IMG/VR virus record: IMGVR_UViG_2737471844_000008
Coordinates: 1 to 39,906 of that record
Direction: 5' to 3' (one strand)
Origin: a virus
Taxonomy: Duplodnaviria; Heunggongvirae; Uroviricota; Caudoviricetes
Length of the DNA stretch: 39,906 nucleotides
This document shows positions 4,692 through 37,971 of this stretch, piece by piece. How positions within the stretch are numbered: the first letter of the stretch is position 1; each line of letters starts with the position of its first letter. The position numbers and the translations under genes were made by a program. The notes beneath the pieces were generated by a model. That model saw only the letters and a program-made list of their open reading frames with translations, did no database searches and was not told the origin of the DNA.

Positions 4692-6725
4692 TTACATAGT
4701 TGTACCATCAGCGTATTTCCAAGCTTGAGCCAGTTGATCAAAAAAAACTGGCTTTTTAGTGTCTATGTTATAGATACTGTGACCGTACCCAAGAAGGTTC
4801 TTATTTATAGCGTTTATCTGTGAGGACGTTGCAGCAGTTGGAATGCCAGACCATGCAACAGTAATTAATATCCAGTTGCTTCCAGTCCAGCGGATGTATG
4901 TTCCTGTATCTGTCTGATAAAAAATATGACCAACAGGAACACCAACTGGCCTGGCAGAAGAAAGCCCAACAACCTGGAAGCCTCTGTCGTCAATCCAAAT
5001 TCCAGCCCCTGCGTTGGTGATGAACCTTCCAAATGCCACGTCATAGTAACTGAAACCAGCAATCGCAGACGTAGTGAAGCCAGATTTCCAGGCGGCAGAG
5101 TTATCAATTGATCTAACTCGAATTTCGCGTCTTGTTGCTTCCGTTGCACTCGATGGTGACGCGTTAGATACAGTGTGAATGGAAACGATATCAACCAGCG
5201 TGCTTACAGGTTCTTCACCACGATAGATGTACTGGAAGCCATCATAGTGGGCACTCTGAGAGTCAATGAATGTCGCCCGCACACGATCTGGTCGACCATA
5301 GTAAACAGATAGCGCATTGGCTGATGCGTATGCTTCATTATAATAGCGCGAACTCTTATCCTGAATTCTCAGAACGTTTTTGTAATCCACGCCAACAGCA
5401 ATGCCAGCGGTAGTGGTGGTGAACCTGAACTCGTTATCCGAAAGAATCAGATCTCCCATTTGCCACGTTGGACTATTAATGTCGTCCTCCGCTCCTTGTG
5501 CACCAATCAAAATTCCCGTTGCGAATGTGCGGCAGCGGTTATCACTGACTTTGAATACATCTGATTTCTGGTCGTGTCTGTGCGTGAATAGAGCAAAACC
5601 ATAACCGCCAACTAGGTCATTGTTGTGCAGGTTAACGCGGTGTGTGCCAATGAATTTAAACGCGCGTTCAAACGTTGTTTCTGGTGTTTCAGTATTGTAA
5701 TTGCGCATCACAACACTGTTGTTTTGTACGAATGCGGCGCGGCTGGTTCCTGTTCCATCGGCAAAACTTGATGCGTAGACCGCATGGCGATCAAGCGGTG
5801 CGCCGGCTACACCAAAAATACAGTTGTCGACAGAGATAATCTCACAATCGATAGGGACAGTACCATAGCCATAAACACCTGCGCTCCAGTCCTGTGAAGC
5901 GAGTTGCTGGAATACGTTGGAGTAACGAACGCCATAGCACAAGTGAATCTGTGCAGTCACAGTGTTAACACCAGCACTGATGTTGCGCATTTCTGATCCT
6001 TCATAATGCGCATAAACGTTGTTCACAGTAATGCCAACTACAGCACGCCCAACACCACGAACTTTTCCGCCGTCAATTTTTACTTTAGTGGTGACGCTTT
6101 CGACGCCTGTTCCGTCAAACGTCAGGATCTGGTAGTAGGTGTTTACGTCTGTAGGCGTGAAGTTAACCCAACCGTCAGCCGTAGATTTGATTGTAATGTC
6201 TCTACCATTTAACGATCTGCGAATTGGTGTGTTTATATTCTGTACGTTATCAATGAGAACATCAGCACTGTTCTCAAGAGCGGTATCAATAGCCTGTTCA
6301 AGGCTTCCAGCCTCTGATGTTTTTACAAGACCGCGAACGCCTCCAATGTATGAAAAACCAATAGAAGATGAAAGCCTTCCCTCCAGCTGATCAGGATCAT
6401 ACTTCAGCACATTAGGAAAATAGAACTGCTTCGCCCCATACGCATCGTACACAGCCATAGAATGACCTTGCACAGTTACGAACTTGGCAATCTGTCCGTT
6501 ATATACCGGGTAACCAGCAGCGTTAATGATGATTGGTTGCGAAACAGGAACGTGAGCGCCATCTTCGTTCTCCACATAAACCTGAATCTGGTTTTCAGGA
6601 TTTACAGGGTCAGTGTCAATTTTACCGATATAAATTTTGCCATTGGCTACAGCTTTAAAAGAACGAGCCATAGTGAAAAGTTGCGAAGGCATGCTTACCA
6701 CAACATTTGCGGTGATATCTGACAT
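4692..6725 (-). CDS. Tailspike protein: P22 gp9-type head-binding domain fused to a divergent receptor-binding domain
   Basis: From [13 protein letters not shown] the first ~110 aa closely match the P22/HK620 tailspike head-binding domain; the rest is divergent. The ORF-track start at 6773 is a 16-aa upstream extension; an ATG at 6723..6725 is preceded by a GGAG Shine-Dalgarno. Confidence 0.9.
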
Positions 6726-6846
6726 TTCATTGCTCCAGACGAATGATATGATGCAACCATGATGTGATTGCATACCGAAATGGTACTATTGAGTATTTAT
6801 CCAGTAGGTTACGATGCCATTCCACCCAACTGGTGAGGCATCAAGG

Positions 6847-7107
6847 ATGTACAGCAAATACGACGAGGCGCAGTTTCACTTGAGACTTCCGCATGAACTC
6901 CACGCGAAAATTAAACAGCGCGCGAAGATGAATAACAGGTCGCTGAACTCAGAGATAATTGCAGCGATTGAAGAATCATTGGCTAAACAAAGCTCTGCAT
7001 CAGTTTACATTGACGATGCAGAGCGTATGGCAGAACAACAATCTGATATTGTTAAGAAAATTGTCTTTGATACGCTCAAGGAGCTATATAAAAAAGACAG
7101 CAGCTAA
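6847..7107 (+). CDS. mnt: Mnt-like ribbon-helix-helix repressor (immI-type), orphan
   Basis: C-terminal segment NDAERMAEQQSDIVKKIVFDTLKELYKK closely matches P22 Mnt; N-terminal RHH motif (FHLRLPHELHAKIKQRA...NGRSLNSEI). Start taken at the internal ATG (MYSKYDE). Confidence 0.8.
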   Translation: MYSKYDEAQFHLRLPHELHAKIKQRAKMNNRSLNSEIIAAIEESLAKQSSASVYIDDAERMAEQQSDIVKKIVFDTLKELYKKDSS

Positions 7108-7127
7108 CCATCAGTTACGGAGGATTT

Positions 7128-7205
7128 ATGCAAAGAGATATGCTGAATATTGCGTTCTACATATTTGGTTTTTGCACGTTCCTGGTGTTTGCGAAGCTAT
7201 TCTGA
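7128..7205 (+). CDS. Hypothetical 25-aa hydrophobic peptide downstream of mnt
   Basis: ATG at 7128 with a GGAGG Shine-Dalgarno 4 nt upstream; encodes MQRDMLNIAFYIFGFCTFLVFAKLF; its 3' end overlaps the convergent gp16-like gene. No homology evidence. Confidence 0.3.
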   Translation: MQRDMLNIAFYIFGFCTFLVFAKLF

Positions 7206-9194
7206 CAACGCATCAGACTTGGCACCCTGAGTCAGGGCGTTAATGGCCTTTTGCGCCTGCTGCATGGCTTTCTCAAACGCTGTTGATCCGCGTTTGGTGT
7301 TTGCCATTCGGAGCATTGCATTTCTGAATGGCTCGCTCTCATAGGCGCGAGTAAGAAGTCCGTAGCTTACTGCTGCGCCAGTTGTTGCAGGGTTCATTGC
7401 CGCCCCATATCCGATAATGAACGGGATGGTTTGCTGCCCTGTGGGGGTTGTTACTGCCGCTTTTGCAGCCTGCTGCGTGGATTGAAGGTAGTTTTTCAAT
7501 CCTTTCAGATAAGCAGCATCCTGCCCCTTAAATGTTATTCCAGTCTGGTTTTGCAGGATGTTAAGCTGCCGAAGGAACTGGTCAGGGGATCCGCCAGATT
7601 TCTCCATCGCCTTTCCAATGATGCCATTGCGCATTTGCGCCCTGCCAACACGACCAACTGAGTTATACAGCGTCTTAATTTCCGATTTGTTCTTGCTGAA
7701 TAGCATGTTGTTGACAACTTCCGGCGTCAGGTCTCCTTTCATGAGAACATTCTTCAGCCTGGTATTCTTTAGTTTCGCCGCTTCGTCAGCGTAGACGGCA
7801 TTGGCCTGCTGATATTTACGGAGAGTATCGTTGCCAAGATTCTGACCAATGGCACCATTGATATCGTCGGTCATCGCCTTGTAAACACGTTGAATGGCGG
7901 CATCAGAACGGTTTGGTAACACTGTCCGCTCCCCCTTCACGTCCATTCTGAACTGGCTGCGCAGATCGCTTAATTGCTTCAAATCCAGATTAACCGGACC
8001 ATCAGGGCCAGCATTGCGAACAAGCTCATCACGATATGACTGAAGTTTTGAAATTGTCTCGTTATCAGCTACCTTACCAAGCTTCTGCAGATTAGATATT
8101 TCTGTATCAATCTGCTGAATTGCTCGCGCAGGCTGAATGTTTACTCCAGCCATAGCATTCTGAACCTGCTCCAGTCGATTACCGGCGGCACGACGAATTC
8201 CTGATGTTTTCGCTTTAAGGCTGTCAATAACAACCGCTGGATCATACTCCCCGAATTTATCGGCAAATCTCTGCACCAACTGACTTCTCGCTTCCTGTTG
8301 CGTTGCTCTCATTCCGCTTGTGCCAGCCAGAGGGATATTTTCTGCTGTAGTCTGAGCCATTTTTCCGACGCGGGAAGTAGGTTGTAACAGGTCTGTGGTG
8401 TGCAGAGGCACTCCTTCACGCTCTGCAAATCTGATAGCCTGCTGCGCTTCTGGCGCAATAGCACCACGAACGCCACGATAAGCAGCGCCTAATCCACGTC
8501 CGGCAGCGTTAATAGCGCCTCCAGCCAGAACGCCAACGCCTAAATCGGTAGCGAGTTCTTCCGCATCATCTTTCGCACTATTTGCAGCAAGTGACCCTAC
8601 TGCGTTTTCTGCGAGAAGGCGAGTTGCCCCCTGAGCAATTCGACCAGCAAGTGTTGGTGCCTGTGCCGCCGCTCTCTCAATGCCAGCAGGAGTGAGGTAA
8701 GGCAATGCTTCAGCAAATACCCTTCCCTCTGTAGTTTGTGGAGTCAGCGCACCTTGCTGAAGTCCAAAGTCATGCTCTAATCCCTGCGTTGTTACTCGTG
8801 GTGCTGGTTGATATGTACCATCGCCAATGCCGAGTTTACCGCCAGCCCAAGCCGCCGCGCTTGTTACAGCATCGGCAACTGATGCAGGTATGTTTGCCAC
8901 GTTCACGCCAGCCTGCACCAGTCCACGACCAGTCTCTTTTACTGCTTCACCAAGATCAGACATAAATCCACTTTGCTGTGGTTGTTGCTGTGCTACTGGT
9001 TGTTGTGTCTCCACTGGCTGCACAGATGGCAATGGATAGGCAGCATAGAAAGCTTGCTTAGCCTGCTCTGCATTTTCTCCGGCTTGCGGGACCACAACTT
9101 CATTGAAGTATTGCTCCTGAGCCTGCGCTTTTTGTTCTGGTGCTAACGCCTGATACTGTGGAGAGGCGATAACATCTTTCCATGCTTTAGCCAT
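7197..9194 (-). CDS. Ejection (DNA-transfer) protein, P22 gp16 / Sf6 gp13-like
   Basis: 665-aa ORF in the gp16 position of the P22 gene order; Gln/Ala-rich N-terminus typical of ejection proteins. TAATG overlap with the upstream gp20-like gene. Confidence 0.8.
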   Translation of the reverse strand: MAKAWKDVIASPQYQALAPEQKAQAQEQYFNEVVVPQAGENAEQAKQAFYAAYPLPSVQPVETQQPVAQQQPQQSGFMSDLGEAVKETGRGLVQAGVNVANIPASVADAVTSAAAWAGGKLGIGDGTYQPAPRVTTQGLEHDFGLQQGALTPQTTEGRVFAEALPYLTPAGIERAAAQAPTLAGRIAQGATRLLAENAVGSLAANSAKDDAEELATDLGVGVLAGGAINAAGRGLGAAYRGVRGAIAPEAQQAIRFAEREGVPLHTTDLLQPTSRVGKMAQTTAENIPLAGTSGMRATQQEARSQLVQRFADKFGEYDPAVVIDSLKAKTSGIRRAAGNRLEQVQNAMAGVNIQPARAIQQIDTEISNLQKLGKVADNETISKLQSYRDELVRNAGPDGPVNLDLKQLSDLRSQFRMDVKGERTVLPNRSDAAIQRVYKAMTDDINGAIGQNLGNDTLRKYQQANAVYADEAAKLKNTRLKNVLMKGDLTPEVVNNMLFSKNKSEIKTLYNSVGRVGRAQMRNGIIGKAMEKSGGSPDQFLRQLNILQNQTGITFKGQDAAYLKGLKNYLQSTQQAAKAAVTTPTGQQTIPFIIGYGAAMNPATTGAAVSYGLLTRAYESEPFRNAMLRMANTKRGSTAFEKAMQQAQKAINALTQGAKSDALSE

Positions 9195-31879: not shown

Positions 31880-32065
31880 TTATGCCGCTTTGCGGTAAGC
31901 GCTTTCTTGATACTTCAGGGCGCCAGCTGTAACGACTTCCAGTCGATAGGCGTCTTTCTCTGGGATGACTTCCTTCCACTGAGAGACTGCTGCGTCGCTA
32001 ATGCCTAACGCTTTAGCTACAGCACGCTGGGTTCCGAAGTGGTCGATAACATCTTTCTTGTACAT
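31880..32065 (-). CDS. cro: Cro repressor, P22-type
   Basis: 61-aa ORF near-identical, from memory, to P22 Cro (MYKKDVIDHFGTQRAVAKALGISDAAVSQWKEVIPEKDAYRLE...). Confidence 0.93.
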   Translation of the reverse strand: MYKKDVIDHFGTQRAVAKALGISDAAVSQWKEVIPEKDAYRLEVVTAGALKYQESAYRKAA

Positions 32066-32079
32066 AGACTCGCTCCGAA

Positions 32080-32145
32080 ATTAAAGAACACTTAAATTAT
32101 CCACTAAAGGAATCTTAAGTCAAGTTTATTTAAGATGTCTTAACT
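32080..32145. promoter_or_regulatory. Right operator OR1-OR2-OR3 with divergent PR (to cro) and PRM (to c2)
   Basis: Three 18-bp P22-type operators: ATTAAAGAACACTTAAAT (32080..32097), ACTAAAGGAATCTTAAGT (32103..32120), ATTTAAGATGTCTTAACT (32128..32145). PR on the minus strand: -35 TTGACT (32118..32123), 17-nt spacer, -10 ATAATT (32095..32100). The c2 ATG directly follows OR3. Confidence 0.75.
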
Positions 32146-32796
32146 ATGAAAACTCAATTGATGGGAGAGCGCATTCGCGCTCGGAGAAAAGAACTCAAGA
32201 TCAGGCAGGCCGCACTTGGAAAGATGGTCGGCGTGTCTAATGTTGCCATATCTCAGTGGGAACGCTCTGAGACAGAGCCAAATGGAGAGAATCTTCTCGC
32301 CCTGGCTAATGCGTTGAAGTGTTCCCCTGACTATCTGATGAAAGGAGAGGAAAGTCTTTCAAACATTGCCTATCACAGTAGGCATGATCCAAGAGGGTCA
32401 TACCCTCTGATTAGCTGGGTGAGCGCAGGATGCTGGATGGAAGCTGTAGAACCATATCATAAGCGTGCAATAGATAACTGGTACGATACAACCGTAGACT
32501 GTTCAGAAGATTCGTTTTGGTTGGACGTGAAGGGAGACTCAATGACGGCTCCGGCCGGTCTCAGTATCCCTGAAGGAATGATAATACTCGTCGATCCTGA
32601 AGTAGAGCCGCGTAACGGGAAACTGGTAGTTGCAAAGCTCGAAGGAGAAAACGAGGCAACTTTCAAGAAGTTAGTTATTGATGCAGGCAGGAAGTTTCTA
32701 AAACCACTTAACCCACAATATCCGATGATCGAGATCAACGGAAACTGCAAAATCATCGGCGTAGTTGTCGATGCAAAACTAGCAAACCTTCCATAA
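32146..32796 (+). CDS. c2: C2 repressor (P22 c2; CI-type HTH plus S24 LexA-like autopeptidase)
   Basis: 216-aa ORF near-identical, from memory, to P22 C2 (QLMGERIRARRKELKIRQAALGKMVGVSNVAISQWERSETEPNGENLLAL...). Confidence 0.95.
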   Translation: MKTQLMGERIRARRKELKIRQAALGKMVGVSNVAISQWERSETEPNGENLLALANALKCSPDYLMKGEESLSNIAYHSRHDPRGSYPLISWVSAGCWMEAVEPYHKRAIDNWYDTTVDCSEDSFWLDVKGDSMTAPAGLSIPEGMIILVDPEVEPRNGKLVVAKLEGENEATFKKLVIDAGRKFLKPLNPQYPMIEINGNCKIIGVVVDAKLANLP

Positions 32797-32819
32797 GGGG
32801 GCATTCGCCCCTTTTTTTT
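32797..32819 (+). terminator. Intrinsic terminator downstream of c2
   Basis: GGGGGC-ATTC-GCCCC hairpin immediately after the c2 stop, followed by eight T residues. Confidence 0.7.
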
Positions 32820-32842
32820 ATTTCCTTTAAAAATCAAAGCAA

Positions 32843-32916
32843 AACTTAAGTTACGAAAGAAAATTTAAGTTTTCTTCAAAAATATTCTTGACCATTAATT
32901 AAAGAGATCTTAAATT
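32843..32916 (+). promoter_or_regulatory. Left operator region OL with PL promoter
   Basis: PL: -35 TTGACC (32888..32893), 17-nt spacer, -10 TAAATT (32911..32916). P22-type operator ATTAAAGAGATCTTAAAT (32898..32915) overlaps the promoter; two further TTAAG-containing operator-like sites lie at about 32843..32879. Confidence 0.6.
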
Positions 32917-32962
32917 TAAGCCATCAGCAGGACGCTGGAAGCCAAACGGAACAGATTGGCAG

Positions 32963-33003
32963 GCTCTTTAACATTGATGGGATTGTCCCGCCGAAATGCG
33001 GGA
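32963..33003 (+). promoter_or_regulatory. nutL (boxA plus boxB)
   Basis: boxA GCTCTTTAACA (32963..32973), then boxB hairpin UCCCGC-CGAAAU-GCGGGA (32986..33003), about 40-80 nt downstream of the predicted PL start; same boxB as nutR. Confidence 0.65.
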
Positions 33004-33314
33004 ACCAAAGAGTAGTTGGCTTTGGGGTGACGTGAAGTGCAGCTGCACGACGGCAACCGGAAGATAAGCACCCGGCGCGTCACCGCCAAAGTCAATTCCA
33101 TAGGCGAAATGCAGCCGCCAAACACAGCCAATGCTGCACATGCAACAGGAGGATTTATGTGAATGCATAACTTCAAAACCGAGGTTAATTAAATCTCTCG
33201 ATCCGAGCATCGACCTATTAGGTGGCGAGATGCTCTTTCTGCCCCTCATGTCGAGGGGACAGAAACCACTTTGCAATCACTATCAATTCCAAAGTTGTTT
33301 CATCGGAGGTCAAC

Positions 33315-33620
33315 ATGACAGTAGTCATTACATATCTGGCTGACGATAACGCCAGAAATCGCCGCAGAGCACGCAGACAGGCTCAACGTGAACAGGCAAT
33401 GCAAGAACAGCGACTGGCGCGAAAGATTGCGCTAAAGCTCTCTGGTTGCGTCAGAGCAGATAAAGCAGCATCAATCGGAAGCCTTCGCTGCAAGAAGGCA
33501 GAAGAAGTCGAGCGTAAACAGAACCGTATTTACTACCGCAAGCCACGCAGTGAAATGGGTGTGACTTGTGTTGGTCGCCAGAAAATGAAATTAGGCAGCA
33601 AACCACTGTATGAGGGGTGA
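33315..33620 (+). CDS. N: N antiterminator, phage-21-type
   Basis: ATG preceded by GGAGG; N-terminal arginine-rich motif (NARNRRRARRQAQREQAMQEQRLARK); C-terminal ~65 aa match phage 21 N from memory (ARKIALKLSGCVRADKAAS.GSLRCKKAEEVERKQNRIYY...). Confidence 0.85.
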   Translation: MTVVITYLADDNARNRRRARRQAQREQAMQEQRLARKIALKLSGCVRADKAASIGSLRCKKAEEVERKQNRIYYRKPRSEMGVTCVGRQKMKLGSKPLYEG

Positions 33621-33623
33621 GAT

Positions 33624-33755
33624 ATGAGCTACCAAATTCAATACAGAAGTTGCGGTAGATGGGTTTGCGGAAACTCTTTCAAAACAAAAGAACAGGCTGA
33701 GCAATACGCAAAACAAACAGGTCAGGATTATCAAATTGTAAAGACAAGGAGATAA
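33624..33755 (+). CDS. Hypothetical 43-aa protein immediately downstream of N
   Basis: ATG 3 nt after the N stop with a GAGGGG Shine-Dalgarno; encodes MSYQIQYRSCGRWVCGNSFKTKEQAEQYAKQTGQDYQIVKTRR; its stop is 1 nt before the PAPS-reductase-like ATG. Confidence 0.4.
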   Translation: MSYQIQYRSCGRWVCGNSFKTKEQAEQYAKQTGQDYQIVKTRR

Positions 33756-33756
33756 C

Positions 33757-34614
33757 ATGCCAGGATTTACAAGTAAATTCATACCAAGAAGAGAATTCAA
33801 GCATAATCCAGAAAGACTAAATGTTATTTCTTCCGGTGGTGGTACTCAAAGTAACGCAATAATCTGCTTAGTACATGCTGGCGTTCTTCCAAAGCCTGAC
33901 ATTATCGTTATGTCAGATACAGAACGTGAGGCAAGTAATGTATTTGAATATCAGAAAAAATATATAGCTCCTATTTGTGAAGATATGGGTGTTGATTACC
34001 TGATTGTTCCTAAAAGTAGATTTGCTACCTACGACATTGATGGGCCTGATCCAGACGTTCCTCTACCTGGATATTTCACAGAATACGAGGGAAGGGATTC
34101 AAAAGGAATGTGCGCTGGAAAGCAACCAGCATTTTGTTCTATAAAGTGGAAAACTGAAGTTATTCAGAGATTTTTAAATGAAAGATATGGAGAGAAGTAT
34201 CTTACAACAAGAGGAGTGGATAGTTGGATTGGGATAAGCATTGAAGAGGCTAAACGAAGAGCGAAATACCCAACTGGCAAGTGGCAGAGGCGCTATCCAC
34301 TTATTGAAATGCTAATGACTAAACAGATGGCAATTCAATGTGTAGAGGATTATGGTCTTCCTACACCACCTGCCTCGCTTTGCTGGATGTGCCCTAACAG
34401 AGATGATGATCTGTGGCTTTATATGAAAAATAACGTCCCATCTGATTTTGAAAGAGCATGTCAGCATGAAAAAGAGATACAAATGAAGTGGCCTCATTTG
34501 TGGCTTACTAAATATGGTGTTCCACTATCTGAGGCACCACTAACACCTAGTGGTGGTAAAAATGCACAAATGGATCTTATACAATTCTGCGATTCTGGAC
34601 TGTGCTTCGTTTAA
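33757..34614 (+). CDS. PAPS reductase-like PP-loop ATP pyrophosphatase family protein with C-terminal Cys cluster (accessory gene)
   Basis: 285-aa ORF; N-terminal PP-loop-like motif (VISSGGGTQSNAI) typical of the PAPS reductase/DndC/BrxP/IbrA superfamily; C-terminal cysteines (CWMC...C...CDSGLC); AT-rich coding sequence; two terminator-like hairpins follow. Confidence 0.8.
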   Translation: MPGFTSKFIPRREFKHNPERLNVISSGGGTQSNAIICLVHAGVLPKPDIIVMSDTEREASNVFEYQKKYIAPICEDMGVDYLIVPKSRFATYDIDGPDPDVPLPGYFTEYEGRDSKGMCAGKQPAFCSIKWKTEVIQRFLNERYGEKYLTTRGVDSWIGISIEEAKRRAKYPTGKWQRRYPLIEMLMTKQMAIQCVEDYGLPTPPASLCWMCPNRDDDLWLYMKNNVPSDFERACQHEKEIQMKWPHLWLTKYGVPLSEAPLTPSGGKNAQMDLIQFCDSGLCFV

Positions 34615-34751
34615 GCCGCATAACCCATTAGAGCAGAAATATTCGCTAATTAAAATTGAAAGAATAATTTCATTTATAAACCAGTTCCCTGAATCTTACC
34701 TGTTTTGCGATGGTGACCGGGAAATAGCAGAGATTAAGTTTGAGGAATGAA

Positions 34752-34776
34752 GCCGAATATTCGGCCTTTACTTTTG
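34752..34776 (+). terminator. Terminator-like palindrome downstream of the PAPS-reductase-like gene
   Basis: Perfect palindrome GCCGAATATTCGGC followed by CTTTACTTTTGG. Confidence 0.35.
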
Positions 34777-34894
34777 GCACTAACAACAGAATAAACACTG
34801 CACTGTGTATTCATTCCAACGAGTGAATACACGGAGCAATGTCGCTCGTAACTAAACAGGAGCCGACTTGTTCTGATTATTGGAAATCTTCTTT

Positions 34895-34921
34895 GCCCTC
34901 CAGTGTGAGGGCAATTTTTTT
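34895..34921 (+). terminator. Terminator-like hairpin immediately upstream of the coiled-coil gene
   Basis: GCCCTC-CAGTGT-GAGGGC stem followed by AATTTTTTT, ending 13 nt before the downstream ATG. Confidence 0.45.
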
Positions 34922-34933
34922 GATGGAGGATAT

Positions 34934-35902
34934 ATGAGTGAAGTAACAGATTTAGTTGTTATTGAAAAAGCAAATGCAATGACTGTATTTCAGTCTGCCG
35001 ACCAGATTGAAGAAATCCTTCAAAAGGTTGAACGTGAAGTTATGTCCTTTGTGCCTGATATCACAACGGCAAAGGGCAGAAAGGAGATCGCTTCTCTGGC
35101 GTATAAAGTTGCGCAGACGAAAACATATCTCGATGGTCTTGGAAAAGACCTTGTTGCTGAACTGAAGGAAATTCCAAAGCTAATTGATGCCAACCGCAAG
35201 ACAGTGCGTGATCGCCTTGATGAGCTGAAATCCAAGGCACGCCAGCCTCTTACTGATTATGAGGAGGAACAGGCACGGATTAAAGCCGAAGAAGAAGCTA
35301 AGGCAGCAGCTGAAGCTCTCGCAAAGCAAATTGAGTCTGACCATGAAATAGCTATTTTGATGGATCGCGAATTTGACCGCCAAAGAGAAGAGGCAAGACT
35401 CAAAGCGGAGCAGGAAAAGCGAGAGCATGAAGAACGCTTAAAAAGAGAAGCTGAAGAGAAAGCCAGAGCAGAAGCCGAAGCAAAGGCAAAAGCCGAAATT
35501 GAAGCAGCAGCAAGGCGAGAAGCAGAAGCTAAGGCCGCAGCGGAACGTGCAGAGCGTGAACGCATTGAAGCCGAGCAACGAGCACAGCGCGAAGCAAAAG
35601 AGGCAGCAGAACGAGCTGAAAGAGAAAAGCAGGCGGCAATTGAAGCAGAACGCCGAAAAGCACAGGAGGAGGCTGAACGAATCCGGCGCGAGGCTGAAGC
35701 AAAAGAGCAAGCCAGAATAGCAGAAGAAAAAAGAATCAAGGACGAAGAAGAGCGTAGAGCAAAGGATAAAGCTCACCGGAAAGAAGTAAATAACAAAATA
35801 CTTGCTGACCTTATCAAGGTTGGCGCATCAGAAGATGTTGCTAAAAATATCATAACAGCCATCGTAAAAGGCAAAGTATTCGCAACAAAAATAACCTACT
35901 AA
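34934..35902 (+). CDS. Coiled-coil protein with long Ala/Glu/Lys/Arg-rich TolA-like helix (unknown function)
   Basis: ATG at 34934 preceded by GGAGGA; the ORF-track start at 34880 is a TTG that would translate the terminator hairpin. About 120-aa N-terminal domain, about 180 aa of EAKA/AERA-type repeats, short C-terminal domain. Confidence 0.7.
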   Translation: MSEVTDLVVIEKANAMTVFQSADQIEEILQKVEREVMSFVPDITTAKGRKEIASLAYKVAQTKTYLDGLGKDLVAELKEIPKLIDANRKTVRDRLDELKSKARQPLTDYEEEQARIKAEEEAKAAAEALAKQIESDHEIAILMDREFDRQREEARLKAEQEKREHEERLKREAEEKARAEAEAKAKAEIEAAARREAEAKAAAERAERERIEAEQRAQREAKEAAERAEREKQAAIEAERRKAQEEAERIRREAEAKEQARIAEEKRIKDEEERRAKDKAHRKEVNNKILADLIKVGASEDVAKNIITAIVKGKVFATKITY

Positions 35903-35926
35903 TAAAACCAACATAAGGAACCACCC

Positions 35927-36058
35927 ATGATTTACGCAATCGCGGGAGGCGCTCGCATGGGTGCCTTCCAACTAAATGAATCTTTACTTGAACGAATCAC
36001 CCGTAAATTACGTGACGGATGGAAAAGAGTTGAGGTCTTATTATGCGCAATGAAATAG
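35927..36058 (+). CDS. cIII: CIII-like protein (FtsH/HflB inhibitor), 43 aa
   Basis: Manual translation gives MIYAIAGGARMGAFQLNESLLERITRKLRDGWKRVEVLLCAMK; the central ESLLERITRKLRDGWKR matches the lambda CIII core helix. AGGA Shine-Dalgarno 8 nt upstream. Confidence 0.75.
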   Translation: MIYAIAGGARMGAFQLNESLLERITRKLRDGWKRVEVLLCAMK

Positions 36059-36195
36059 CCATCAATCACCAGATGCTTCGTGCTGCACAGAACAAAGCAG
36101 TAATAGCCAGATTTATTGGTGATTCCAAAATGTGGCTTGAAGCAAATAAAGCGATGAAATCAGCTATCAACCTTCCGTGGTATCGCAGGAAATGA
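36043..36195 (+). CDS. Kil-like small protein (candidate host cell-division inhibitor), 50 aa
   Basis: Overlaps the cIII 3' end in another frame; ARFIGDSKMWLEA resembles the remembered lambda Kil motif (ATFIGDEKMFREA). Weak Shine-Dalgarno. Memory-based assignment. Confidence 0.4.
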   Translation: MRNEIAINHQMLRAAQNKAVIARFIGDSKMWLEANKAMKSAINLPWYRRK

Positions 36196-36270
36196 GTTTT
36201 ACAGATAACTGGTCAGACGAAGAATTCATTCGTCAGATGAAAGAATTAATCGGTAACGAAGGAGATATTC

Positions 36271-36441
36271 ATGTCACTTGCAACCACAGTGAAGGAGAGC
36301 AAGTTACAGAGACGCATGTACACGCAGAAAGCTCTCTGGTATCGCCATAATGGCGACCGCGAAGGAATGCGGGTATGCCTTAATTTGTCCCGAGTCGAAG
36401 TATTAAATCAGCGTTATTTCCTTGGGCCATGTCCATTCTGA
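36271..36441 (+). CDS. Hypothetical 56-aa protein upstream of the annealing-protein gene
   Basis: ATG preceded by a strong AGGAG Shine-Dalgarno at 6-nt spacing; ends 8 nt before the Erf-family gene. Confidence 0.35.
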   Translation: MSLATTVKESKLQRRMYTQKALWYRHNGDREGMRVCLNLSRVEVLNQRYFLGPCPF

Positions 36442-36449
36442 GGTGATTT

Positions 36450-37157
36450 ATGGATTTGAATAAATTCGATGAGCCATTCAGCCCTGAAGATATCGAATGG
36501 CGAATACAGCAAAGCGGTAAAACACGCGATGGCAAAGTGTGGGCTATGGTGCTGGCTTATGTCACGAACCGGGCAATCATGAAACGCCTGGACGATGTTT
36601 GCGGCAAAGCAGGATGGCGCAATGAATACCGCGATATTCCCAACAACGGCGGAGTTGAATGCGGCATATCAATCAAGATTGATTCCGAATGGGTAACCAA
36701 ATGGGATGCTGCTGAAAACACGCAGGTAGAAGCCGTCAAAGGCGGTCGTTCCGGTGCAATGAAGCGCGCTGCCGTTCAGTGGGGAATCGGTCGGTATCTG
36801 TATAACCTTGAGGAAGGTTTTGCACAAACATCTCTCGATAAAAAGCAGGGATGGCACAGGGCAAAACTGAAGGATGGAACAGGATTTTACTGGCTCCCTC
36901 CATCGCTGCCGGGATGGGCAATCCCAGCATCAGATAACAAACCATCACCAGAAAATACCAACCAGAAATCTCCATCGGTTAACTGCGAACAAATCCTGAA
37001 AGACTTCAGCGATTATGCGTCAACAGAAACTGACAAGAAAAAACTCATCGAGCGTTATCAGCGTGACTGGCAATTAATGGCTGGCAACGAGGAGGCGCAG
37101 GCTAAATGCGTTCAGGTAATGAACATCAGAGTTAACGAACTAAAACAGGCGGCATAA
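36450..37157 (+). CDS. erf: Single-strand annealing protein: Erf C-terminal domain joined to a divergent Rad52/Sak-like N-terminal domain
   Basis: C-terminal ~55 aa (EQILKDFSDYASTETDKKKLIERYQRDWQLMAGNEEAQAKCVQVMNIRVNELKQAA) match the P22 Erf C-terminus; the N-terminal domain (KGGRSGAMKRAAVQWGIGRYLYN) does not match the P22 Erf N-terminus. Confidence 0.85.
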   Translation: MDLNKFDEPFSPEDIEWRIQQSGKTRDGKVWAMVLAYVTNRAIMKRLDDVCGKAGWRNEYRDIPNNGGVECGISIKIDSEWVTKWDAAENTQVEAVKGGRSGAMKRAAVQWGIGRYLYNLEEGFAQTSLDKKQGWHRAKLKDGTGFYWLPPSLPGWAIPASDNKPSPENTNQKSPSVNCEQILKDFSDYASTETDKKKLIERYQRDWQLMAGNEEAQAKCVQVMNIRVNELKQAA

Positions 37158-37664
37158 ATGGCAAGCAGAGGCGTAAATAAGGTGATTATCCTTGGTCGGG
37201 TAGGACAAGACCCGGAAGTTCGATACTCACCATCAGGAACAGCGTTCGCTAACCTGACAATAGCCACGTCAGAACAATGGCGAGATAAAAATACTGGCGA
37301 GCAAAAGGAATTGACTGAATGGCATCGTGTTGCTGTATCCGGGAAACTGGCTGAGGTCGTGGGGCAGTATGTGAAAAAAGGTGATCAGATTTATTTCGAG
37401 GGAATGCTGAGAACCAGAAAGTGGAAAGACCAGTCAGGGCAAGACCGTTACACAACCGAGGTTCATGTCGGAATTAATGGCGTGATGCAAATGCTTGGCG
37501 GCATTGGCGACAGCAAACAACAAGCAGCCAGCAGGCAATCACAGAAGCCACAGCAGCAATCATCACCAGCACAACACAACGAACCTCCGATGGATTTTGA
37601 CGACGATATACCCTTTGCACCAGTAACTCTCCCCTTCCCTCGTCACGCTATTCACGCAATTTAA
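37158..37664 (+). CDS. ssb: Single-stranded DNA-binding protein (SSB)
   Basis: 168-aa ORF with an OB-fold N-terminus ([38 protein letters not shown]), Gln/Pro-rich linker and acidic C-terminal tail (DFDDDIPF); start abuts the erf stop. Confidence 0.93.
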
Positions 37665-37677
37665 TCAGGAGAAAATC

Positions 37678-37971
37678 ATGCCAGCGCCTCAGTATGGTGC
37701 GGATGACCCACGCCGCTGTTCCGGCAATTCCGTATCGGAGGTGCTGGATAAATTCAGGAAAAACTACGACCGGATAATGTCGCTACCGCAGGAAACGAAA
37801 GAGGAAAAGGAATTTCGCCACTGTATATGGCTTGCAGAGAAAGAAGAACGCGAGCGAATTTACCAGACATCAATCCGACCATTCCGCAAAGCCACATATA
37901 CCCACTTCCCTGAAATTGACCCGCGCCTGCGTAATTACCGCTCACGCTATGGCGCTATCAGTAATGACTGA
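37678..37971 (+). CDS. Hypothetical protein (97 aa)
   Basis: ATG preceded by an AGGAGA Shine-Dalgarno; no recognised motif. Confidence 0.5.

Follow-up and report, generated by a model that had tools for sequence, protein, structure and literature searches.

Phage recombination systems of the Red/RecET type are the basis of recombineering, and they work poorly outside their native hosts. Such systems combine single-strand annealing proteins (SSAPs) with exonuclease and SSB genes in a homologous-recombination (Rec) cassette, and the gene examined here belongs to a very large, widespread and uncharacterised family that accompanies these cassettes in many phages. Its closest described relatives are gene 33 of phage Sf6, Orf53 of Pseudomonas phage D3 and PHROG 1376, from which it differs in nothing of substance; all are the same gene, hereafter called gene 33. 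The family is already catalogued and widely conserved, and the present copy is an ordinary one. Literature searches on TolA-like and lambdoid genes, Sf6 gp33, DUF1351 and accessory-gene screens returned no functional data, in agreement with a reading made from the sequence alone (the sequence-only reading), which had found the function not evident. A 2025 survey of lambdoid Rec modules, which it defines by SSB, nuclease, SAP and anti-RecBCD genes, omits the gene from its list (PMC12315714).

Gene 33 and its surroundings in the pL operon

The window, a stretch of 39,906 nucleotides, derives from a P22-like E. coli phage in which gene 33 lies within the pL operon, with the following features.

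34752..34775, + strand: first terminator-like hairpin (GCCGAATATTCGGC, then a T-rich tail), at the end of the accessory slot (terminator scan, RNA fold)
34783..34925, + strand: conserved leader segment with a 14-bp hairpin and a terminator (alignment, Sf6 annotation, RNA fold)
34893..34921, + strand: intrinsic terminator, an 8-bp G+C-rich stem (34893-34914) followed by T7 (terminator scan)
34926..34930, + strand: ribosome-binding site GGAGG, ending 3 nt 5' of the ATG (from the sequence)
34934..35902, + strand: coding sequence of gene 33, ATG start, 322 aa; PHROG 1376 match
35257..35739, - strand: spurious antisense ORF of 160 aa, from GAAGC-type repeats; not a gene
35438..35776, - strand: spurious antisense ORF of 112 aa (ORF listing)
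35927..36058, + strand: cIII (Pfam Lambda_CIII, 4e-15)
36043..36195, + strand: kil (Pfam Lambda_Kil, 1.7e-20)
36450..37157, + strand: Rad52-like annealing protein, the SSAP (Pfam Rad52_Rad22, 5e-26)
37158..37664, + strand: SSB (Pfam SSB, 1.6e-36)
37678..37971, + strand: Abc2, anti-RecBCD (Pfam Anti-RecBCD_p2, 4.9e-63)

The phrog_1376 profile matched the protein over its full length (E = 9.4e-111; residues 1-322 on profile positions 1-362), and at the nucleotide level the gene is 98-99% identical to its counterparts in Sf6 (gene 33), CUS-3, mEp213, mEp234, HK544 and IME10. It was found in 530 of 5,426 complete E. coli genomes, about 10%, so the gene, which the sequence-only reading had taken to be obscure, is in fact very common. 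An upstream TTG start at position 34880, offered by the ORF listing, is not credible because this position falls within the terminator hairpin. The two antisense ORFs are present and spurious, as had been anticipated from the low-complexity repeats: the translation of the longer one is low-complexity Ser/Ala/Arg sequence, and the sense strand is under purifying selection.

In a three-way alignment with lambda and Sf6, the leader proved essentially identical to the lambda segment 5' of ea10 (the tL2 region) and likewise to the 'boundary sequence' bsq4 of the Sf6 annotation; its RNA fold scored z = -6.25. Its terminator at 34893..34921 is identical to the Sf6 element annotated as tL2A, and Sf6 gene 33 occupies the same slot, 3' of tL2A and 5' of cIII. 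A terminator-like hairpin does stand before the ribosome-binding site, as had been noticed, but the gap to GGAGG is 11 nt, not 13. Rfam detected no RNA families in 32000-37500. Because a terminator identical to tL2A lies ahead of the gene, transcription into gene 33 should, judging from lambda biology, need N antitermination; the protein would be made as a delayed-early pL product once N permits read-through of the tL2-type terminator. Lambda Ea10 shares this slot, directly 3' of the identical tL2-type leader and 5' of cIII, but homology to it was rejected: the sequences are unrelated (BLASTP E = 1.4), and Ea10 has 122 aa compared with 322 aa. Downstream, Pfam verified all four genes that had been named from the letters, cIII, kil, the annealing protein and SSB; cIII, kil and two small ORFs lie between gene 33 and the SSAP.

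Architecture and length variation of the protein

The ORF and its composition agree on a real 322-aa soluble protein with a long helix, as first described. Its coding sequence contains the following elements.

34934..35278, + strand: conserved N-terminal region, residues 1-115, comprising helices 12-20 and 22-38 and the first part of the long helix
35264..35788, + strand: central Ala/Glu/Arg/Lys-rich helix, residues 111-285, of allele-variable length (composition, AlphaFold2)
35288..35545, + strand: 27-nt direct repeat pair (35288-35314 and 35519-35545), 89% identical, 231 nt apart
35492..35648, + strand: 16-nt direct repeat pair (35492-35507 and 35633-35648), 141 nt apart
35765..35899, + strand: conserved C-terminal mini-domain, residues 278-322 (alignments; pLDDT 90-96)

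Residues 1-110 are of mixed composition, residues 111-285 consist to 80% of A/E/R/K (E 28%, A 25%, R 16%, K 11%), and K, I, A and V are abundant in residues 286-322. The protein has no signal peptide or membrane helix, because every 20-residue window contains charged residues. The AlphaFold2 model (pLDDT 86.4) places helices at residues 12-20, 22-38, 46-168, 176-295 and 300-311. The N-terminal region is modeled as two short helices packed onto the start of the long helix, in place of the separate globular domain that had been proposed. More than 5,000 protein clusters, from at least six phyla, belong to the family defined by the N-terminal 120 aa, in which R49, K63, G70, K78, D85, R88 and E110 are invariant. 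In alignments, family members keep the N-terminal head, a variable helix and the C-terminal ...IxY tail. The C-terminal mini-domain follows the pattern H-x3-I-N ... G-h-s-E-x-x-A-K ... G-x-I-P-x-h-x-I-x-Y, which ends at the carboxyl end, and 112 of 140 family members end in Tyr. A subfamily motif, LAKQIESDHEIAILMDREFDR, occupies residues 128-148, in the central helix.

The coiled coil suggested by the sequence-only reading is not established, since residues 155-280 contain about one hydrophobic residue per 20 and heptad periodicity is absent. With 60 opposite-charge i/i+4 pairs in the 175 residues from 111 to 285, the helix looks more like an ER/K-type single helix. AlphaFold does not discriminate between a single helix and dimeric or antiparallel coiled coils, and the helix has an Ala-containing face (period about 3.7) with which it may form a coiled coil or 'alacoil' instead. 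We take ER/K single alpha-helix (SAH) spacers and KfrA-type plasmid proteins, which have an N-terminal head and a long Ala-rich helix, to be the proteins that it resembles. The likeness lies in composition, i/i+4 salt-bridge pairs, the absence of a heptad hydrophobic pattern and the head-plus-rod design; none of 62 family members gave a KfrA_N or any other Pfam match. A low-confidence break in the model at residues 167-173 (pLDDT < 50) could be a hinge and makes an antiparallel hairpin rod conceivable; large rmsd values to homologous rods (80-105 Å, BFVD search) suggest extended models.

Natural alleles range from 245 to 333 aa and differ only by in-frame indels within the helix, at direct repeats, with both ends intact. 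The 27-nt repeats coincide with the deletion end-points of a natural 245-aa allele (P0099), which lacks 77 aa, and the 16-nt repeats match a 47-aa deletion in a natural 275-aa allele (P0018). Recombination at short direct repeats, always with the frame preserved, has thus given the alleles their different helix lengths. In the family as a whole, the middle segment ranges from 42 to 255 aa and both ends are retained, as one would expect if a spacer joined two functional ends. The gene is not a degenerate remnant: the dN/dS of the N-domain is low (about 0.05-0.09), and all length variants preserve the frame.

Searches with the whole protein and with its isolated termini against Pfam, NCBIfam, PADLOC and PDB sequences gave only compositional noise; neither the isolated C-terminal 51 aa nor the whole protein matched Pfam even at E ≤ 10, and the two ends showed no recognisable DNA-binding or protein-binding fold. 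When the full-length model was compared with the PDB by Foldseek, nothing fell below E = 2 (a RuvA-like match at E = 9 is not meaningful), and the BFVD fold search returned only members of the family itself. Catalytic features, membrane features and enzyme-family matches were likewise absent from the sequence and fold searches.

Linkage to recombination genes and competing readings

We compared the neighborhoods of 72 species-dereplicated loci from Alpha-, Beta-, Gamma- and Deltaproteobacteria, Acidobacteria, Planctomycetes, Verrucomicrobia and others. In 56 of the 72 (78%), gene 33 was followed on the same strand by an SSAP or a YqaJ/DUF3799 exonuclease, typically in the order gene 33–SSAP–exonuclease–SSB. 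At 23 of the 72 loci the SSAP started no more than 120 nt from the stop codon of gene 33; in many non-enteric loci gene 33 thus directly adjoins the Rec genes, whereas in this window cIII, kil and two small ORFs intervene. An SSAP was found upstream at only 8 of 68 loci, and the upstream gene was heterogeneous. Pfam matches of the next two ORFs were to ERF (21), RecT (9), Rad52 (3), AAA_24 (4), YqaJ (17) and DUF3799 (6). Examples are JBD44, in which gp65 is the gene 33 product (gp65–ERF–YqaJ), and phiLM21, in which it is gp10 (gp10–Erf–exonuclease–NinB); in Vibrio V039C the order is ERF–SSB–gene 33. Among the matches of the IMG/VR scans, the first of which covered only copies 98-100% identical, alleles of at least 98% identity sit upstream of ERF (33 loci), Rad52-like (30), RecT (5) and Sak4 (L022) annealing proteins, with no SSAP recognised at 6 further loci. 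Since near-identical alleles precede four unrelated SSAP families, any partner of the protein would not be specific to one of them. Of the three candidate roles that had been put forward, a recombination-associated factor, a host-envelope effector and a counter-defence protein, the synteny of the 72 diverse loci favors the first.

Our tentative proposal, which we consider possible and prefer to the alternatives below, is that gene 33 encodes a non-enzymatic, rod-shaped accessory protein of the phage Rec cassette. The protein consists of a helical N-terminal head that bears an invariant basic/acidic stripe, then a stiff helix rich in Ala/Glu/Arg/Lys, whose length is about 26-39 nm in different alleles, and lastly a small domain at the C terminus that ends in a conserved h-x-h-x-Tyr carboxyl tail. 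We propose that each end binds a partner of its own and that the helix serves as a spacer or tether between them. Instead of one particular annealing protein, generic partners are envisaged, among which DNA ends, ssDNA-SSB or a host replication/repair factor would be candidates. In this way the protein may assist the SSAP/exonuclease/SSB machinery in its work on the ends of phage DNA.

The same gene position could also be read as that of an anti-nuclease or anti-defence protein, a somewhat unlikely role in which the gene 33 protein would protect DNA ends or inhibit a host nuclease or defence system (RecBCD/AddAB, SbcCD, SMC-type) as a functional analogue of lambda Gam or Mu Gam, sparing linear phage DNA and recombination intermediates. 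The gene heads SSAP–exonuclease cassettes, which is the place of Gam in lambda (gam–bet–exo), and at 70 of the 72 diverse loci no Gam or Abc2 homologue was found beside the cassette, so that nothing else identified there accounts for such a function. The cassettes of Firmicutes phages carry one or another of the Mu-Gam-like, DUF2483, DUF1351 or gp157 genes in this position, and these have been read as having analogous functions (PMC8093625). However, Abc2 accompanies gene 33 in almost all E. coli phage copies, and Gam does so at a Raoultella locus (L161, gene 33–Gam–RecT–YqaJ) and in a near-identical E. coli copy (L067, gene 33–cIII–Gam–RecT), indicating that the protein is not simply a substitute for the known anti-RecBCD proteins. 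Pfam and PDB searches gave no homology to lambda Gam, Mu Gam or P22 Abc2, the last of which is encoded here by a separate gene at 37678-37971, and no PADLOC or known inhibitor model resembled the protein. Its rod carries almost no net charge (about -0.05 per residue) and is not acidic, and is thus no DNA mimic.

We regard it as unlikely that the protein has no link to recombination and acts instead in host takeover or early regulation, on the nucleoid, division or replication timing, as Kil and cIII act, with the Rec adjacency reflecting a conserved early-left operon order. In this window and in close relatives, the immediate neighbors are cIII and kil, not Rec genes, and gene 33 lies in the variable ea10/ral/gene-17 'accessory' region of lambdoid phages; because cIII, kil and small ORFs part it from the SSAP in these phages, the linkage could be one of operon order. 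No recognisable Rec gene was found nearby at 16 of the 72 diverse loci (about 20%). Nevertheless, the immediate adjacency to SSAP or exonuclease genes is found again in phyla whose phages have no other early-operon genes in common, and the combination of recurrent Rec genes downstream with an unconserved neighbor upstream forms a directional pattern that operon order alone would not explain.

Distant homology to DUF1351 (PF07083) of Firmicutes phages, which would make both parts of one ancient superfamily heading SSAP cassettes in Gram-positive and Gram-negative hosts, is quite unlikely. DUF1351 proteins are of similar size (about 260-310 aa) and share the position upstream of SSAPs (PMC8093625), as in Oenococcus phi9805 (DUF1351–Sak4–SSB). 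Both families are uncharacterised and largely helical; in each, a helical N-terminal part is followed by a middle rich in E/K and by a short 'L-T/S-x-x-Q/E-A ... I-x-Y/F' element in the C-terminal part, and hhalign gave weak matches that run colinearly at the N and C ends. These matches reached only E = 0.07-0.5 and a probability below 1%, both with a profile of 12 DUF1351 sequences and with a deeper one of 118+; none of 62 gene 33 family members matched PF07083 in Pfam at E ≤ 0.01, and a scan with a single DUF1351 protein found only itself. With none of three profile-profile comparisons of growing depth significant, DUF1351 stays a positional analogue.

The naming of the protein as a TolA-like envelope protein by NCBI and several phage annotations ('cell envelope biogenesis protein TolA') is almost certainly wrong, as its tolA_full score of 10.5 bits (TIGR02794, E = 0.26) lies far below the cutoff of 59.45, and family membership is refuted. 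The long Ala/Glu/Lys-rich helix, likewise found in TolA domain II, is all that the two share, a compositional likeness and not evidence of homology. A TolA-type N-terminal anchor is absent, with E3, D6, E11 and K12 among residues 1-20 (MSEVTDLVVIEKANAMTVFQ), Pfam detected no TolA C-terminal domain III, and the gene 33 protein is cytoplasmic and phage-encoded. A role as a host-envelope effector found no support.

Meaning for phage recombination and its annotation

The gene 33 family is systematically mis-annotated as TolA, and automated annotation spreads the error. Its tight, one-sided linkage to SSAP/exonuclease/SSB cassettes in distant phyla makes it a candidate missing partner of Red/RecET-type systems. 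As a speculative extension of the accessory role proposed above, and a doubtful one, nearly every phage single-strand-annealing recombination system may contain the protein as an additional, so far unrecognised component, a rod-like tether or loader that would work with any SSAP family (ERF, RecT, Rad52-like, Sak4) through a generic partner, be it DNA ends, SSB-coated ssDNA or a host replisome factor, and of which DUF1351 may be the Gram-positive counterpart. If this is true, co-expression of the gene 33 protein could make recombineering more portable and more efficient. Furthermore, the repeat-driven, in-frame length polymorphism of its helix would provide a clear natural case of a tunable protein spacer.

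Gene order and leader around the ORF of X

The window comes from a P22-like phage or prophage of E. coli, in which the ORF of the 322-aa protein studied here (X) lies between the antiterminator and the recombination genes, as listed below.

Features around X in gene order
32146-32796, + strand: cI-type repressor, first in the gene order
33222-33620, + strand: N-like antiterminator
33757-34614, + strand: PAPS-reductase-like accessory gene (285 aa; PHROG 424), between N and X
34893-34914, + strand: hairpin followed by a T7 run, annotated as terminator tL2A in Sf6
34934-35902, + strand: X, ATG start, 322 aa
Directly downstream of X, + strand: cIII, then kil
36177-36350 and 36271-36441, + strand: overlapping small ORFs (57 and 56 aa), between kil and the annealing protein
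36450-37157, + strand: Rad52-type annealing protein, followed by SSB and Abc2

A GGAGG site precedes the ATG of X by three bases; an alternative TTG start at 34880, from a mechanical ORF listing, was rejected because it sits within a terminator hairpin. The 143 bp preceding X (34783-34925), annotated in Sf6 as a mosaic "boundary sequence," are essentially identical to Sf6 and to the lambda stretch upstream of ea10, and the match is common to the three phages despite their differing flanking genes. X thus sits where lambda has ea10; kinship to Ea10 itself was rejected, the two proteins being unrelated. By analogy with lambda biology, it is reasonable to infer that expression of X would depend on N antitermination. 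The leader RNA (34745-34935, + strand) folds far better than shuffled controls (MFE −64.7 kcal/mol, z = −6.25) and holds two terminator-like hairpins plus a 14-bp hairpin that is perfectly paired (GUGUAUUCAUUC...GAGUGAAUACAC). The MFE fold pairs the GGAGG ribosome-binding site with AUCUUCU, which lies immediately 5' of the terminator stem; this pairing hints at translational control. In mEp213 (L002, PV340538.1), two "antitermination protein N" genes are annotated (1138-1470 and 2623-2895), both upstream of X in the same early-left operon.

The 285-aa accessory product matches PHROG 424 ("phosphoadenosine phosphosulfate reductase") at 4.2e-36 and has a PP-loop-like motif, SGGGTQS; no Pfam model matched it at E ≤ 0.01. 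PAPS-reductase-like accessory genes are frequently linked to DNA modification or counter-defence. The two small ORFs hit PHROGs 2123 and 1723, whose common label "recombinase" has no evident basis; the ORFs are counterparts of the HK97 gp42.1/gp42-like genes in Sf6 and occupy the P22 arf position. Names of lambdoid annealing proteins (SSAPs) are inconsistent between records: the 36450-37157 product is "Erf-like" in Sf6 and PHROG 1097, yet its Pfam match is Rad52_Rad22 (5e-26), and the mEp213 gene annotated "Bet" is actually ERF-type, sharing with that product only a C-terminal segment (29%, 114 aa).

A variable helical rod between conserved ends

X has mixed composition at residues 1-110, is 80% Ala/Glu/Arg/Lys at residues 111-285 (E 28, A 25, R 16, K 11%), and is enriched in Lys, Ile, Ala, and Val at residues 286-322; composition analysis of all 322 residues found neither a signal peptide nor a membrane helix. 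An AlphaFold2 model from a 62-sequence alignment (pLDDT 86.4) predicted two short helices (12-20 and 22-38), a single very long one spanning residues 46-295 and interrupted only by a low-confidence break at 167-173, and a helix at 300-311 followed by a confidently placed extended tail. Since the first two helices build on the start of the long one, the N-terminal part is modeled as a small helical head and not as a separate globule; the sequence-only reading had proposed a globular domain. That reading had also called X a TolA-like coiled-coil protein; both terms proved to be compositional impressions. The NCBIfam TolA model scored 10.5 bits, far short of its 59.45 cutoff, and neither the anchor nor the C-terminal domain of TolA was found in X. 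The name "TolA" in NCBI and several phage records is a product of amino acid composition alone, and "antitoxin," "fibrinogen binding protein," and "major outer membrane lipoprotein," used in other records, are no better founded. The gene as such was confirmed with minor corrections, as were the spurious long antisense ORFs, which are made by its GAAGC-type repeats.

Because hydrophobic residues are sparse (about 1 per 20 at residues 155-280), a period-7 signal is absent there, and 60 opposite-charge i/i+4 pairs occur in 175 residues, the rod looks more like an ER/K-type single alpha-helix than a canonical coiled coil; a coiled coil through a weak Ala-containing face (period about 3.7) is possible. 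Across the family, the middle is 42 to 255 aa long (median 199), about 79% A/E/K/R/Q/D and about 14.5% hydrophobic, with a net charge near neutral. Natural E. coli alleles (245, 275, 290, 300, 322, or 333 aa) vary solely by in-frame blocks within the helix, their ends being 98-100% identical, and so the helix may serve as a spacer of tunable length, roughly 26-39 nm if each residue adds 0.15 nm. Of the deletions seen among these alleles, one of 77 aa maps exactly between 27-nt direct repeats of the window at 35288 and 35519 (231 nt apart), and one of 47 aa between 16-nt direct repeats at 35492 and 35633 (141 nt apart).

The ends are held fixed by selection. The N-domain dN/dS against Erwinia and Pantoea homologues is about 0.05-0.09, indicating strong purifying selection; R49, K63, G70, K78, D85, R88, and E110 are invariant in the head; and the C-terminus follows the pattern H-x3-I-N...G-h-s-E-x-x-A-K...G-x-I-P-x-h-x-I-x-Y, the final residue being Tyr in 112 of 140 members and aromatic in 125.

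X is an ordinary gene that has been catalogued before: PHROG 1376 covers it from end to end, its identity to Sf6 gene 33 and to counterparts in CUS-3, mEp213, mEp234, HK544, HK633, and IME10 is 98-99%, and it occurs at ≥95% identity in 530 of 5,426 complete E. coli genomes. In the CUS-3 record (L183, CP000711.1 35058-36027), one extra nucleotide follows codon 112, where head and rod meet (window equivalent 35269); it is either a true frameshift or a sequencing error. The gene is annotated there as a pair of overlapping ORFs (116 and 214 aa), which is probably why PHROGs also has separate families for the N part (17211) and the remainder (21365). When the N-terminal 121 aa were searched against 1.84 billion cluster representatives, 5,006 matched at E ≤ 1e-3, of which 3,530 reached E ≤ 1e-10, always N-terminally and in proteins mostly of 250-430 aa. 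The family occurs in phages of Pseudomonas (D3, JBD44, PAJU2, Ab31), Vibrio, Klebsiella, Erwinia, Acinetobacter, Shewanella, and Sinorhizobium, and species-level loci add Beta- and Deltaproteobacteria, Acidobacteria, Planctomycetes, Verrucomicrobia, and one CPR genome. Part of this breadth may be binning noise. A 3.9-kb contig of an "Actinomycetes bacterium" MAG (L167, JAFADF010000066.1) carries a copy of X with 99% identity to that of the E. coli phage, almost certainly through mis-binning or contamination, and a "Coriobacteriia" MAG (L120) carries a Pseudomonas-like X>ERF>YqaJ>SSB cassette; the Acidobacteria, Planctomycetes, and Verrucomicrobia matches stand on longer contigs.

Linkage to recombination cassettes

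After dereplication by species, 72 loci had 2.5 kb or more of sequence downstream of X; in 56 of them (78%) a same-strand SSAP or YqaJ/DUF3799 recombination exonuclease followed X. A downstream SSAP lay within 3 kb in 36 of the 72 and started within 120 nt of the X stop codon in 23. An SSAP was upstream of X in only 8 of 68, and the upstream neighbor is heterogeneous. X>SSAP>exonuclease>SSB is the typical arrangement (e.g., JBD44 and phiLM21), and the 141 proteins of the two ORFs after X gave Pfam matches to ERF (21), RecT (9), Rad52 (3), AAA_24/Sak4-like (4), YqaJ (17), DUF3799 (6), SSB (3), and Arf (2).

Near-identical E. coli copies with enough flank were followed by a recognized SSAP in 68 of 75 cases, from three unrelated families (ERF 33, Rad52-like 30, RecT 5). 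Of the seven others, the single one inspected (L022, an IMG/VR contig with 100% identical X) is a prophage in which an identical X-cIII-kil block is followed, at 6440-7704, by a Sak4-type ATPase (Walker A GESGTGKS) and an HK620 HkaK-like SSB (C-terminal DYPPF). These two stand in for the Rad52-like SSAP and the SSB of the window, so that modules have been swapped cleanly where kil meets the SSAP. Because near-identical copies precede ERF, Rad52-like, RecT, and Sak4 proteins, X travels with recombination cassettes without co-varying with the annealing-protein family. The partner of X is therefore more likely generic (DNA ends, SSB-ssDNA, or a host factor) than one specific SSAP.

In a survey of Firmicutes SSAPs, the position upstream of erf-ssb or sak4 was filled alternately by Mu-Gam-like, DUF2483, DUF1351, or gp157 genes, for which analogous functions were suggested (PMC8093625). 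DUF1351 resembles X in size, position, and a C-terminal "L-T-x-x-Q-A...I-x-Y" element. With DUF1351 taken from Oenococcus phage phi9805, profiles of 12, later 118+ sequences gave non-significant profile-profile comparisons (E 0.07-0.5, probability <1%); distant kinship gained no support, and DUF1351 is treated only as a positional analogue. In some DUF1351 proteins (P0288, P0386) a DNA methyltransferase domain is fused on (PF00145 C-5 cytosine methylase; PF02086 MethyltransfD12), and several others have an E/K-rich MAP7-like segment (PF05672); such additions may hint at the binding targets of DUF1351-type proteins. A recent survey of lambdoid Rec modules describes SSB, nuclease, SAP, and anti-RecBCD components, and the X gene is absent from it (PMC12315714).

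Possible roles of X

The interpretation given in the sequence-only reading is supported in part: both termini match nothing characterized, and we found no experimental work on any family member in the literature. Of the candidate roles it offered, a recombination-associated factor gains from the Rec-cassette neighborhood, and the others gain no support. Tentatively, the most likely reading is that X would be a non-enzymatic, rod-like accessory factor within phage recombination cassettes, its rod serving as a spacer or tether that would join two conserved binding ends. A role for X in blocking nucleases or protecting DNA ends seems rather unlikely; X co-occurs with Abc2 in the window and with Gam in two loci (L161 and L067), which argues weakly against its being a mere further anti-RecBCD protein. 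A role unrelated to recombination we consider unlikely. The part that deserves experiment is the family-level linkage of X to recombination cassettes, not the single gene itself.
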